A DNA stretch of 64,000 nucleotides from Deltaproteobacteria bacterium (GCA_040218735.1 JAVJQW010000019.1:1-64000); one strand, 5' to 3'; counted from the stretch's first letter, positions 16,199 through 59,846 are shown. Made by a program: numbers and translations. Notes: generated by a model from the letters alone, not told the origin.

Positions 16199-17836
16199 TC
16201 ACCCGCCATCTTCCACGGATTCGAGGCCGTACGCGATGGCGTCGACGATGCGGTCGATCTCCTCCGTGGAGACGGTGAGCGGCGGCATGATCACGAGCAC
16301 GTCCCCCAGCGGGCGCAGGAACACCCCCTTGTCGCGCGCGCGCAGACACACACGGATGCCGGTGCGGTCGTTGGGGTCGAAGGGCCCGTCGGGCCGCCCC
16401 AGCTCGATCCCCGCCGCGAGCCCGTAGCTCCGAACGTCCTGCACACCCGGCTTACCGGCGAGGCGACGCGCCGCGGACGCGAGGTGCTCGACCTTCGCGG
16501 GGAGCGCGTCGAGCACGCCCTCCTGCTCGAACACGTCGAGCGTCGCGAGCGCCGCAGCGCAGCCCAGCGCGTTCCCGGTGTACGTGTGGCCGTGGAAGAA
16601 CGTCTTCTTGTCGCCCGGCGGCGCGACGAACGCATCGAACACCGTCTGCGTCGTCAGCGTCGCCGCGAGCGGCAGGTAACCCGCGGTGAGTCCCTTCGCG
16701 ATGCAGAGGAAGTCGGGCGTAACGCCTTCGCGTTCGCAGCAGAACATCGCGCCGGAGCGCCCCATCCCGACCGCGACCTCGTCGAACACCACGAGCGTGC
16801 CGTGGTTCTTCGCGATCTGCACCGCTTCGGCGAGGAAGCCGTTCGGGAGCGGGAGGATGCCGCCGGCGCCCTGGAAGCCGGGCTCGATGACGAGCGCGCC
16901 GATCTCCCCTTCGTGACGATCGAACAGCTCCGCGAGCGCGGTGAGCGACGCTTCCGGCTGGCCGTACGGGGACGGCGCGCGGAGCACGTCGAAGAGCATC
17001 GGGTGGAAGATGCGGTGGAAGAGGTCGATGCCGCCGACCGACACCGCGCCGATCGTGTCGCCGTTGTATGCGGCGTCGAACGCGAGGAACCGCGTGCGCT
17101 TCGTTTCGCCGACCTGCTGCCAATACTGGTAGGTCATCTTCAGCGCGATCTCGACGGCGGTGCTGCCGTTGTCGGAGTAGAAGACCTTCGTCAGCGGATC
17201 GGGCGCGAGGTCCGCGAGGCGCTTCGCGAGCTGAACCGACGGCACCGTCGCGTGGCCGAGCAGCGTCGCGTGCGCGATGCGATCGAGCTGCGCGCGGATC
17301 GCGGCGTCGATCTTGTCGTGCCGGTGGCCGAAGGTGTTGCACCAGATCGAAGCGACACCATCGAGGTAGCGGTTGCCGTCGACGTCGATCAGGTCGTGGC
17401 CTTCGCCGCGTTCGATCAGGAGCGGCTGCTCGTCGCGGTAGACGGCGTGCGGCGTGAAGGGGTGCCAGAGGTGGGCGTCGTCCCAGGCCTCGAGTACCCG
17501 GCCGTCGACGCGGCTTCGCCGCGCCCCCTGGGCACCTCGTCGGCTTTCCCCCTCCCGGGGGGGCGCCTCCTCGAGTACCCGGCCGTCGACGCGGCTTCGC
17601 CGCGTCCCCTGGGCACCTCGTCGGCTTTCCCCCTCCCGGGGGGACGCCTCCTCGAGTACCCGGCCGTCGACGCGGCTTCGCCGCGTCCCCTGGGCACCTC
17701 GTCGGCTTTCCCCCTCCCGGGGGTGCGCCTCCTCGAGCACCCGGCCGTCGACGCGGCTTCGCCGCGTCCCCTGGGCACCTCGTCGGCTTTCCCCCTCCCG
17801 GGGGTGCGCCTCCTCGAGCTGCTTTTGGTCAGCCAT
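16199..17836 (-). CDS. bioA: DAPA aminotransferase with a 108-aa repeat insertion near the N-terminus
   Basis: LWHPFT, YLDGVASIW, DNGSTAVEIALK, DEVAVGMGRSG, AKGLTAGYLP, HGHTYTGN. Confidence 0.95.
   Translation of the reverse strand: MADQKQLEEAHPREGESRRGAQGTRRSRVDGRVLEEAHPREGESRRGAQGTRRSRVDGRVLEEASPREGESRRGAQGTRRSRVDGRVLEEAPPREGESRRGAQGARRSRVDGRVLEAWDDAHLWHPFTPHAVYRDEQPLLIERGEGHDLIDVDGNRYLDGVASIWCNTFGHRHDKIDAAIRAQLDRIAHATLLGHATVPSVQLAKRLADLAPDPLTKVFYSDNGSTAVEIALKMTYQYWQQVGETKRTRFLAFDAAYNGDTIGAVSVGGIDLFHRIFHPMLFDVLRAPSPYGQPEASLTALAELFDRHEGEIGALVIEPGFQGAGGILPLPNGFLAEAVQIAKNHGTLVVFDEVAVGMGRSGAMFCCEREGVTPDFLCIAKGLTAGYLPLAATLTTQTVFDAFVAPPGDKKTFFHGHTYTGNALGCAAALATLDVFEQEGVLDALPAKVEHLASAARRLAGKPGVQDVRSYGLAAGIELGRPDGPFDPNDRTGIRVCLRARDKGVFLRPLGDVLVIMPPLTVSTEEIDRIVDAIAYGLESVEDGG
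17488..17818. mobile_element. Four tandem 81-bp two-hairpin elements inserted in frame in bioA
   Basis: CTCGAG recurs at 17489, 17570, 17651, 17732 and 17813; flanking direct repeat CCTCGAG; unit peptide EAHPREGESRRGAQGTRRSRVDGRVLE. Confidence 0.92.
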
Positions 17837-18806
17837 CGCGTCGGCCTTCGAAGCCGCTCTCGCGGATCATTCGGAAGTCGGCGTCTTCGCCTTGGCCGAG
17901 GGTGGTGAGGTAGCCGTTGGCGAAGATCGAGTTGGCGACGTGCAGGGCGAGGGGCTGCAGGCTCCCGAGCGTGACCTCGCGACCGCCGGCGGCGCGGAGG
18001 TCCTGCGACGGGTGCACGAAGCGGAACATCGCGAGCGTGCGTAGCGCGTCGTTCGGGCTGAGGCGCTTCGCTTGTTGCAGCGGCGTACCAGGGCGCGGGT
18101 CGAGGAAGTTCACCGGCACCGATTCGACGCCGAGCTCCGAGAGCGCGAAGGCGAGCTCGACGCGGTCCTCGATCGTCTCGCCCATCCCGACGATTCCGCC
18201 GGAGCACGCTTCGAGGCCGGCGGCCCGCGCGGACTGAACGGTGGTGAGGCGGTCCTCGTACTGGTGGGTGCTGACGACCTCGCCGAAGAAGCGCTGCGAC
18301 GTCTCGAGGTTGTGGTTGTAACGGGTGACCCCCGCGTCGGCGAGCGCCTCGGCCTGGCCGGGTTTGAGCAGGCCCAGGGAAGTGCAGATGCCGAGCGTGG
18401 GAAATTCAGAGCGGATCGTTTGGACCGCGTCGCAGATTTCCCTCAGCTCCTTCGCCGAGGGCCCCCTTGTCGCGGTGACCATGCAATACGTGGACGCGCC
18501 GGCCCGTACCGCGCGACGCGCTGCCGTCACGAGGGTCTCTGCGGATTGCATTGCGTACGTGTCGACCTGCGTTTCGAATTTCGTCGACTGACTGCAGAAG
18601 CCACAGTCCTCGGGGCACGCGTCGCTCTTGGCGTTCTGGAGGACGTGCACCTTCACGAGCGTGCCGTGGTGGTGGCGCCGCACCCGCGACGCCGCGTGGA
18701 GCAACAGGAGCAGGTCTTCGTCGGGGCTCTTCAGCAGGTCGGTCGCTTCGGCGCGTGTGATTCGTTCTCCGCCGAGGACCCGTTCCGCGAGGGCTTCGTA
18801 CTGCAT
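17829..18806 (-). CDS. bioB: Biotin synthase
   Basis: Radical SAM motif CPEDCGFC, YNHNLETS, CSGGIVGMGE, SVPVNF, AGGRE, GYLTT. Confidence 0.96.
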   Translation of the reverse strand: MQYEALAERVLGGERITRAEATDLLKSPDEDLLLLLHAASRVRRHHHGTLVKVHVLQNAKSDACPEDCGFCSQSTKFETQVDTYAMQSAETLVTAARRAVRAGASTYCMVTATRGPSAKELREICDAVQTIRSEFPTLGICTSLGLLKPGQAEALADAGVTRYNHNLETSQRFFGEVVSTHQYEDRLTTVQSARAAGLEACSGGIVGMGETIEDRVELAFALSELGVESVPVNFLDPRPGTPLQQAKRLSPNDALRTLAMFRFVHPSQDLRAAGGREVTLGSLQPLALHVANSIFANGYLTTLGQGEDADFRMIRESGFEGRRDG

Positions 18807-59379: not shown

Positions 59380-59846
59380 TGCCGCGCATGTTCCCGCTCC
59401 CTGGTGGCGTCCGACGCGACGCCGCCGTCGACGCGTGGTTCACGCCCCGCGGCGAGCTCGGCGCGATCGCGCGGCGCTGGTTCGAGGTCATGCGCGCGCA
59501 GGGCGACGACGTCGTGGAGCTGCTTCACGACGACCAACCCACCGCCTGCGTCGGCGACGCACCGTTCGCCTACGTGAACACGTTCAAGGCCCATGTGAAC
59601 GTCGGTTTCTTCCGCGGCACTGAGCTTTCAGATCCGGCCGGGCTCCTGGAGGGGACCGGTAAGTTCATGCGGCACGTGAAGTTGCGCCCCGAGCGCCCGA
59701 TCGACGAGGGCGCGCTGGACCACCCGGCCGGCGACGCGGCTGCGCCGCGCCCCCTGGGCACCTCGCTCGCTTCCTCCCTCACGGGAGAGCGCGAGCTCGA
59801 GCACCTCATCGCCGAGGCGTACGCCGAGCTGCGCGCCGCGCTCTGA
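59379..59846 (+). CDS. DUF1801 (YdhG-like) protein with a 27-aa insertion
   Basis: FAYVNTFKAHVNVGFFRG.EL.DP.GLLEGTGKFMRHVKL; TGATG coupling to the upstream gene. Confidence 0.9.
   Translation: MPRMFPLPGGVRRDAAVDAWFTPRGELGAIARRWFEVMRAQGDDVVELLHDDQPTACVGDAPFAYVNTFKAHVNVGFFRGTELSDPAGLLEGTGKFMRHVKLRPERPIDEGALDHPAGDAAAPRPLGTSLASSLTGERELEHLIAEAYAELRAAL
59715..59805. mobile_element. Single 81-bp element (bioA family) in frame in the DUF1801 gene
   Basis: 65/81 ungapped matches to the bioA unit by hand count; imperfect direct repeats CTGGACCACC (59715) and CTCGAGCACC (59796). Confidence 0.9.

Follow-up and report, generated by a model that had tools for sequence, protein, structure and literature searches.

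The window analysed here is the whole of a 64,000-nucleotide stretch from a Deltaproteobacteria bacterium (GCA_040218735.1, JAVJQW010000019.1:1-64000), in which three unrelated protein-coding genes (bioA, a DUF1801 gene, and a 1005-codon open reading frame (ORF) with an alpha/beta-hydrolase part) are each interrupted by short repeated DNA. The inserts very probably belong to two low-copy, non-autonomous, hairpin-forming repeat families, A and B, that were recently inserted into genes and are tolerated there in the manner of the Rickettsia palindromic elements (RPEs). An earlier note, made from the sequence alone, had described related-looking, in-frame inserts in these three genes, and their coordinates, lengths, direct repeats and motif are all borne out. 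The inserts and their hosts are as follows.

16199..17836, minus strand: bioA, class-III aminotransferase (Pfam E = 4e-93), 545 codons, between bioB and bioD
17495..17818, plus strand (element sense): family A array (A1), four 81-bp units, 324 bp inserted, in bioA
24342..27359, plus strand: host ORF of B1, 1005 codons, Fe-dependent alcohol dehydrogenase + alpha/beta-hydrolase + homogentisate 1,2-dioxygenase, with the insert within the alpha/beta-hydrolase part
25746..25868, plus strand: family B insert (B1), 123 bp in total, made up of a partial unit of 36 bp (25746-25781) and then a complete one of 87 bp (25782-25868)
59379..59846, plus strand: DUF1801 gene, host of A2, with the insert C-terminal to the Pfam domain (residues 30-113)
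59721..59801, plus strand: family A single unit (A2), 81 bp, in the DUF1801 gene

The 545-codon ORF was identified as bioA from its class-III aminotransferase match and its placement between bioB, whose end overlaps the bioA start ATG, and bioD; it is the sole BioA-like match in the genome (E <= 1e-60). At 17488-17818, Tandem Repeats Finder detects an 81-bp period in 4.1 copies (98% matches), and CTCGAG hexamers stand at 17489-17494, 17570-17575, 17651-17656, 17732-17737 and 17813-17818. Inserted after codon 8 and upstream of the conserved HLWHPFT motif, the array is translated antisense as 4 x 27 residues (LEEAxPREGESRRGAQGxRRSRVDGRV). Since the stretch from the array to HLWHPFT offers no in-frame ATG, GTG or TTG, a functional BioA must retain most or all of the 108 extra residues.

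The single unit in the DUF1801 gene is translated in sense as DHPAGDAAAPRPLGTSLASSLTGEREL(E) and is bounded by CTGGAC on the left (59715-59720) and CTCGAG on the right (59796-59801). As the element DNA has the same orientation in bioA (minus strand) and in the DUF1801 gene (plus strand), its orientation relative to the reading frame is opposite in the two hosts. The hydrolase insert is read in sense (41 residues); its 36-bp partial unit consists of hairpin 2 plus the 3' end of the element, and GGCACC hexamers are found at 25740-25745, 25776-25781 and 25863-25868. All three insert lengths (324, 81 and 123 bp) are divisible by 3, and the direct repeats at the edges are CCTCGAG (bioA), CTGGAC/CTCGAG (DUF1801) and GGCACC (hydrolase). 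The motif CACC-N-GGGCAC occurs seven times in the window against 1.94 expected, a count reached in none of 100 shuffles, and four of the seven matches lie within the three elements. The host ORF of B1 combines a part resembling Fe-dependent alcohol dehydrogenase/maleylacetate reductase, an alpha/beta-hydrolase and a complete homogentisate 1,2-dioxygenase in a single plus-strand frame (24342-27359), and appears to be an unusual fusion of three enzymes of aromatic catabolism.

Two repeat families of low copy number

The whole assembly (G000; 11.6 Mb in 70 contigs, 69% G+C, 96% complete, estimated contamination 4.65%) was searched with blastn and with nhmmer with filters off (--max). Family A (81 bp, or 27 codons) is represented by 16 units at 10 loci, with further matches only at E >= 0.45, one of which is a decayed tandem remnant; family B (87 bp, or 29 codons) is represented by 7 full copies at 7 loci, plus adjoining partial units. 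No Rfam family matched the window copies at E <= 1. The size and composition of the genome, together with its many Ser/Thr kinase genes and the source name of a close orthologue ('Deltaproteobacteria bacterium'), fit the myxobacterial lineage proposed earlier.

The two families have a common layout, in which a CACCC start is followed by a hairpin with a GC-TNC-GC top, GGGCAC, and a second hairpin. However, the profile of neither family matched the other anywhere in the genome at E <= 10, so that the single family of the earlier note is not supported: judged by their profiles, the hydrolase element (B) is separate from the bioA/DUF1801 element (A), and only the layout and short motifs are common to both. 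The edges of family A are CTCGAG-like hexamers, and because the units of an array are separated by one hexamer, each insertion adds 81 bp. Family B is edged by GGTACC- or GGCACC-like hexamers and adds 87 bp, with copies of 88 and 90 bp also present; its copies differ by 6-20%.

Copies beyond the window do exist, as had been predicted, but the suggestion that the elements are reshaping the proteome genome-wide is overstated, given only ~17 loci (10 of family A plus one decayed remnant, and 7 of family B) in 11.6 Mb. The window forms the first part of contig C41 (C41:1-64000), which makes up 3.8% of the assembly and carries 5 of the 17 loci, three of them within the 64 kb; this clustering suggests local hopping or local copying.

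Empty sites and recent insertion

The insertion sites were compared with those in G001, the only other genome of the genus (75% complete), and in a further relative, G006. The bioA site is empty in both, with a single CTCGAG and no insert (the G001 protein is 86% identical), and the DUF1801 orthologues of both are short by exactly the 27 codons. For two further family A hosts, an AraC-type regulator and an MFS/HEAT protein, both insert flanks match the G001 orthologue and are contiguous there. Every family A locus with a spanning G001 orthologue (four of four, among six of the ten loci compared) is thus empty in that genome, the orthologue of the kinase hosting A9 being split over two contig ends and uninformative, and these same-genus empty sites confirm that the inserts are insertions and not ancestral peptides. 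No orthologues of the hydrolase part or of the A7 host were found in five relatives. All eight aligned distant carboxylesterase homologues are without the B1 loop, and deletion of its 41 residues restores both the loop length and a conserved GT.

A search of 40 relatives, G001 among them, turned up no family A copy, and the core pattern of the family gave 0 matches in species-representative genomes and JGI metagenome contigs. A protein search with the sense peptide array returned six matches, all from this species group, and the antisense bioA array gave four weak matches (21-36% identity) against a representative protein library. Family B is present in G001 (five matches at four loci) and in a metagenome-assembled genome record set (three loci), never at a G000 locus. 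At three of the four G001 loci, both flanks are matched in G000 with the element missing, one of these empty sites being a single GGTACC inside a conserved AWYPG motif; the fourth (C772) lies at a contig end with one flank only. Family B is older than family A and genus-wide. Between close strains, P0030 (a Logan assembly) carries a 27-residue family A unit where the G000 orthologue shows a clean 27-residue gap, with flanks identical at 157 of 161 residues. The elements, which had been called active, are recently mobile, as seen from the non-overlapping family B sites of two species and from the P0030 unit opposite an empty G000 site, but current activity was not borne out.

The same comparisons bear on the alternative that the inserts are native low-complexity protein segments, alike by descent or convergence, or artefacts of metagenome-bin assembly. 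The encoded peptides are rich in Pro/Ala/Gly/Ser or in Arg/Glu/Gly and resemble many natural linkers, and the assembly is fragmented and has the estimated contamination given above. Nevertheless, DNA identity reaches 82-100% between unrelated genes in both orientations, orthologues show gaps of exactly 27 codons, and the units recur in proteins of close relatives (NCBI, Logan). Both junctions are present in the assembly of X2, a run of another study: one contig comes from the left flank and extends 66 bases into the bioA array, another begins with the final 29 bases of the array and reaches the left portion of the hydrolase insert, and a third picks up within the 3' end of that insert. Contigs from two further studies (X3 and X5) end at the edges of the bioA array and of the hydrolase insert, and in X1 the unit-junction unitigs are at single-copy depth; the number of units in bioA cannot be read from contigs. 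An artefact of this assembly is thereby excluded for the inserts, and the alternative as a whole is largely refuted and extremely improbable.

Position of the copies within host genes

The copies are distributed over the following hosts.

Family A, bioA: antisense, four units
Family A, DUF1801 gene: sense, one unit
Family A, GFA-family gene: sense, in the C-terminal tail
Family A, response regulator with DUF4388: sense
Family A, FecR-like anti-sigma protein: decayed copy
Family A, AraC-type regulator: antisense, two units, between its two domains
Family A, protein without Pfam match (A7): three units, from codon 2
Family A, MFS/TLC-HEAT protein: sense
Family A, Ser/Thr kinase (A9): antisense, after the kinase domain
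Family A, lipoprotein gene: truncated copy, either upstream of the gene or at its start
Family B, hydrolase domain (B1, window): sense, 36 + 87 bp
Family B, hybrid histidine kinase: sense
Family B, PEGA-domain pseudokinase: sense
Family B, Ser/Thr kinase: antisense array
Family B, RluA-type pseudouridine synthase: sense, within the domain
Family B, NUDIX hydrolase: sense, 88 bp
Family B, protein without Pfam match: antisense

On our reading, 9 of the 10 family A loci and all 7 family B loci are coding, the ORFs around them showing host-like codon statistics and Pfam domains that are unrelated to one another, and all nine coding family A inserts fall outside Pfam domain envelopes. Both orientations relative to the host genes occur in each family. 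With an automatic criterion, which required the repeat to be spanned by an ORF of host-like codon statistics, the counts were 8/10 for family A and 5/5 for family B, compared with 2/130, 1/28, 0/27 and 3/23 for four other hairpin or short-repeat families of G000. Among the repeats of this genome, A and B are thus the 'coding-compatible' ones.

Insert lengths in multiples of 3, which had been proposed as a general rule, are not found throughout. The 88-bp family B copy splits a NUDIX hydrolase gene (C23:326848-327390) into halves that no longer share a frame, and the element itself contributes a stop codon; the gene is probably a young pseudogene. A family B copy in G001 likewise frameshifts a GH3-like gene, where sequence error is possible in the fragmented G001 assembly.

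Hairpin structure and tandem arrays

Both families can fold into two hairpins. Six pairs in family B are changed on both sides, one of them showing UA, GC, AU and CG, and the covariation score is 0.205 compared with 0.078 for shuffles (0 of 500 reach the observed score) and at most 0.059 for slid controls, with covariation in two helices; this pattern indicates that base pairing in family B is under selection. In family A, 84.6% of cells are paired compared with at most 56.5% in slid controls; hairpin 1 is nearly invariant, and hairpin 2 has four pairs changed on both sides. Hairpin 1 of family A carries a TNC triloop in 14 of the 15 scored units, the complement of which is a GCGNAGC-type mini-hairpin, a DNA structure reported as extraordinarily stable (PMC13037366, PMC3201870). 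As hairpin 2 of family B does not keep the TNC loop, the triloop is treated only as a hint that a single-stranded DNA form matters.

Units are 96.6-100% alike within an array compared with 82-93% between loci, and the arrays run head-to-tail with one common hexamer per junction. At the FecR-like locus, a relative with ~96% identical flanks has ~2.6 units where G000 has one decayed unit. Units amplify in place after insertion.

Insertion sites and mode of spread

Under the preferred reading, the elements would insert at short, roughly palindromic hexamers that are CTCGAG-like for family A and GGTACC-like for family B. A copy landing in a gene would add a probably disordered peptide of 27-29 residues instead of destroying the protein, because the unit length is a multiple of 3 and most frames are stop-free, and selection would keep copies in termini, linkers and surface loops while removing others. 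The unit plus one flanking hexamer would then amplify or contract locally, through slippage at the flanking direct repeats or unequal exchange of them, which gives head-to-tail arrays. Recent insertion, tolerance in frame, growth into arrays and, in family B, selection for base pairing are shown by the results above. Beyond these, the hairpins would be the feature recognised by the mobilising machinery, probably as single-stranded DNA, and an enzyme encoded elsewhere would catalyse the movement in trans. Our leading guess for it, plausible but short of probable, is a transposase that cuts the hexamer in a staggered way; a single-strand HUH/Y1-type enzyme and enzyme-free template switching are each possible but unlikely forms of the same explanation. 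Flanking hexamers are equal at A1, A4, A6, A7, A9, B1 and B6, and the equal non-canonical pairs (two copies of GTCGGG at A9, two of GGCACC at B1) resemble target duplications. The core T-(C/G)-G-A fits most family A sites.

A number of results, collected in this and the following paragraphs, weigh against the preferred reading. Flanking hexamers are unequal at A2, A3, A8, B2-B5, B7, G001-C203 and G001-C327 (e.g., CTGGAC/CTCGAG at A2, CTCGAC/CTCGAG at A8, and GGTACC/GGTAAG at G001-C327 over an empty GGTAGG in G000), and the empty site in G000 for the P0030 insertion is TTGGAA; on both counts, plain target-site duplication is not established. The unequal pairs at A2, A8 and G001-C327 look like one element-borne hexamer plus one target hexamer, and the TTGGAA site points to the same arrangement or to a microhomology copy, while the 6-20% divergence of family B copies means that some of the inequality could be later mutation. 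Neither family has terminal inverted repeats by eye, the ends matching no better than GC-rich sequence would. For family A, the covariation score (0.083) is reached by slid controls as well (0.092 at +1, 0.087 at +2), and z-scores for the folding of single sequences are modest, from -1.0 to -2.9. The other strains, as represented by the X runs, showed no empty allele at either the bioA or the hydrolase site.

The search for a mobiliser was likewise negative. None of the 36 window ORFs scanned contains a transposase or recombinase domain, as the earlier note had stated, and TnpB (PF07282) has no match in the genome. An association with a RAYT/TnpA(Y1) gene, which the earlier note had suggested looking for, was sought at the five Y1/RAYT-like genes (PF01797) and was not found; these genes carry other repeat clusters within 1.5 kb, with no A or B copy nearby, and a RAYT link was rejected on this ground. 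No mobilising gene was found for either family, and the description of the elements as non-autonomous stands. A full-length insertion sequence (IS) with the same ends was not found either, nhmmer returning only whole units and the one decayed remnant, although an IS collapsed at contig ends could be missed.

Unequal hexamers and the missing mobiliser are what would be expected if the elements spread with no dedicated enzyme, the nascent strand in replication or repair switching by hexamer microhomology onto an existing copy, copying one unit and switching back, with the hairpins helping. One flanking hexamer would then derive from the target and the other from the donor, and the inequality does run both ways: A2 and A8 deviate on the left with a canonical right hexamer, and G001-C327 has a canonical left hexamer with a right one resembling the empty site. 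The lack of terminal inverted repeats, the very low copy number and the share of loci on contig C41 (as expected of short-range copying) agree with this alternative, and the same direct repeats plausibly drive tandem amplification. However, it needs at least 17 independent, precise one-unit events at unrelated loci in both orientations, which is many for an uncatalysed process; the non-canonical hexamers of A9 and B1 are the same on both sides, as in a true target duplication; and the covariation in family B points to selection on the hairpins themselves. As a replacement for the preferred reading, enzyme-free spread is distinctly unlikely.

The last two adverse results concern the encoded peptides. 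At all nine coding family A loci, and in P0030 too, the hexamer falls in frame as a pair of complete codons (L-E, L-D or P-D). This phase is found at 5060 of the 10783 phase-resolved CTCGAG sites of the genome (47%; p ~0.001 if the loci are independent), and the other frames of the unit are mostly open. One-phase use at 9/9 loci is not predicted by simple random insertion, and its simplest reading is selection on the encoded peptide. Secondly, the three-unit array in P0027 is identical to that of G000 at 79 of 83 residues, compared with 143 of 189 in the rest of the host protein, a difference that could reflect constraint or function rather than pure selfishness. Both results, along with the retention of four units in the only bioA of the genome, would fit inserts kept because they are useful, either as domesticated linker peptides or as DNA or RNA hairpins regulating the host genes. 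Against usefulness, the hosts have no function in common, one and the same element is translated in sense at some loci and antisense at others (family B in at least three frames), orthologues that lack the inserts still function, family B copies frameshift the NUDIX and GH3-like genes, and the copy at the FecR locus is decaying, all of which makes this explanation very unlikely.

Two further sources for the units were tried and rejected. Ligation of fragments into XhoI- or KpnI-type cuts does not agree with the arrays, which are all head-to-tail, or with the frequencies of the sites in the genome (observed/expected 0.86 for CTCGAG and 1.00 for GGTACC, compared with 0.16 for AAGCTT); as CTCGAG and GGTACC are not avoided, restriction enzymes are apparently not involved. 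An origin as retron multicopy single-stranded DNA was discarded for lack of an extra copy beside a reverse transcriptase, since no extra copies exist. The strong genome-wide avoidance of AAGCTT (135 sites compared with 859 expected under a Markov model) is what a HindIII-type restriction-modification system would produce.

A broader proposal, speculative and on balance doubtful, is that families A and B belong to a wider, undescribed Myxococcota class of 'protein-compatible' mobile DNA, with a fixed length of 27-29 codons, two very stable single-stranded DNA hairpins, and copying into short palindrome-like hexamers in a way that no described transposon uses. Copying would proceed by a hairpin-guided single-strand or template-switch route or by an unknown enzyme, and one frame per orientation would give a harmless disordered linker. 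If true, large bacterial proteomes would continually gain new linkers, termini and in-frame tandem repeats from such DNA.

Comparison with known repeats

The analogy with RPEs, drawn in the earlier note, is right. A 2024 review (PMC10969869) describes RPEs as ~150-bp elements lying in frame in genes, and finds a similar process in other prokaryotes conceivable. Families A and B, like RPEs, are hairpin-capable repeats that lie in frame in unrelated genes and are absent from orthologues. In the accounts cited here (PMC10969869 and PMC3733652, summarising Ogata et al. 2000 and 2002), RPEs likewise comprise several families of short hairpin repeats in unrelated, apparently functional genes, to which they add a peptide, and they have neither a transposase of their own nor a known mobiliser. 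The differences lie in the host (11.6 Mb and 69% G+C as opposed to the reduced, AT-rich genome of an intracellular Rickettsia), in the units (81 or 87 bp compared with ~150 bp) and their far lower copy number (~17 loci), in the location of copies (nearly all intragenic here, about half in RPEs), and in the hexamer direct-repeat edges and frequent in-frame tandem arrays; the comparison is one of behaviour, not of sequence.

Intragenic repetitive extragenic palindromic (REP) sequences adding 20-30 residues have been reported in several bacteria, and CGTC-type REPs lack a dedicated transposase (Di Nocera et al. 2013, PMC3733652). Families A and B resemble REPs and bacterial interspersed mosaic elements in being GC-rich stem-loops with intragenic copies, but they are fixed two-hairpin units of 81 or 87 bp at low copy number, whereas REPs are single palindromes of 20-40 bp, high in copy number and mainly extragenic. 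A consistent GTAG or CGTC tag is missing by eye, CGTC preceding hairpin 1 only in the bioA-type variant. They also differ from REP/REPIN-RAYT systems in that the RAYT-like genes here are flanked by another repeat, and in that the A and B loci (10 and 7) are nearly all intragenic.

With miniature inverted-repeat transposable elements (ERIC, Correia/NEMIS, RUP, BOX), which as reviewed in PMC10969869 are small, non-autonomous, flanked by direct repeats and occasionally intragenic with in-frame fusions, the two families agree in all these traits. They differ in having no terminal inverted repeats by eye, no related full-length IS that was found, and flanking repeats that are often imperfect. Elements derived from IS200/IS605 have subterminal hairpins and insert next to a short specific sequence with no target duplication. 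An element-borne end sequence of this type could explain a canonical hexamer on one side, but A9 and B1 have the same non-canonical hexamer on both sides, and neither a linked IS200-type TnpA nor a TnpB was found.

Our literature search found no prior description of such elements in myxobacteria; an older report is said to describe an 87-bp repeat in Myxococcus xanthus. We know of no study in which the movement of RPE-type 'selfish DNA inside genes' has been worked out, and Rickettsia hosts are hard to study. The same behaviour in a free-living bacterium with a large genome is tractable by virtue of four features (very few, young copies, clean pairs of filled and empty sites between species and between near-identical strains, clear boundary hexamers, and two coexisting families), so that both the chemistry of insertion and what in-frame peptides cost in fitness become testable. 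In GC-rich genomes, where stop codons are rare, an element with a length of 3n can live almost entirely inside genes. There are also practical consequences, as the inserts inflate gene models (e.g., the 545-residue BioA) and break short-read assemblies at their edges.

Other repeats and genes

Several other repeat families of G000 have hairpins with GC-TTC-GC tops, like those of families A and B. At least three further hairpin or short-repeat families are nearly always intergenic (cluster 1, ~130 regions; cluster 7, 28; cluster 11, 23). Cluster 8, a ~95-bp hairpin repeat with 27 regions, none inside ORFs, recurs every ~500 bp over 8 kb at C28:135890-143839, like a cassette array, and is also present on C15. 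The window contains in-frame-looking tandem repeats that belong to neither family A nor family B, at 50925-51291, 1-136, 37894-37951 and 49070-49335; they comprise a 36-bp repeat in 10 copies with a super-period of 108 bp, a 24-bp repeat in 5.7 copies, and runs of hexamers. A CCCGGT-like hexamer repeat (cluster 2) has 83 regions genome-wide.

Elsewhere in the window, a GatB_N/GatE-like protein of 671 residues (39979-41991, plus strand) is followed by a GatD-like protein with asparaginase domains and GatD_N (41904-43382, plus strand), a pair that, from its domain content, is a predicted archaeal-type GatDE amidotransferase in a bacterial genome.

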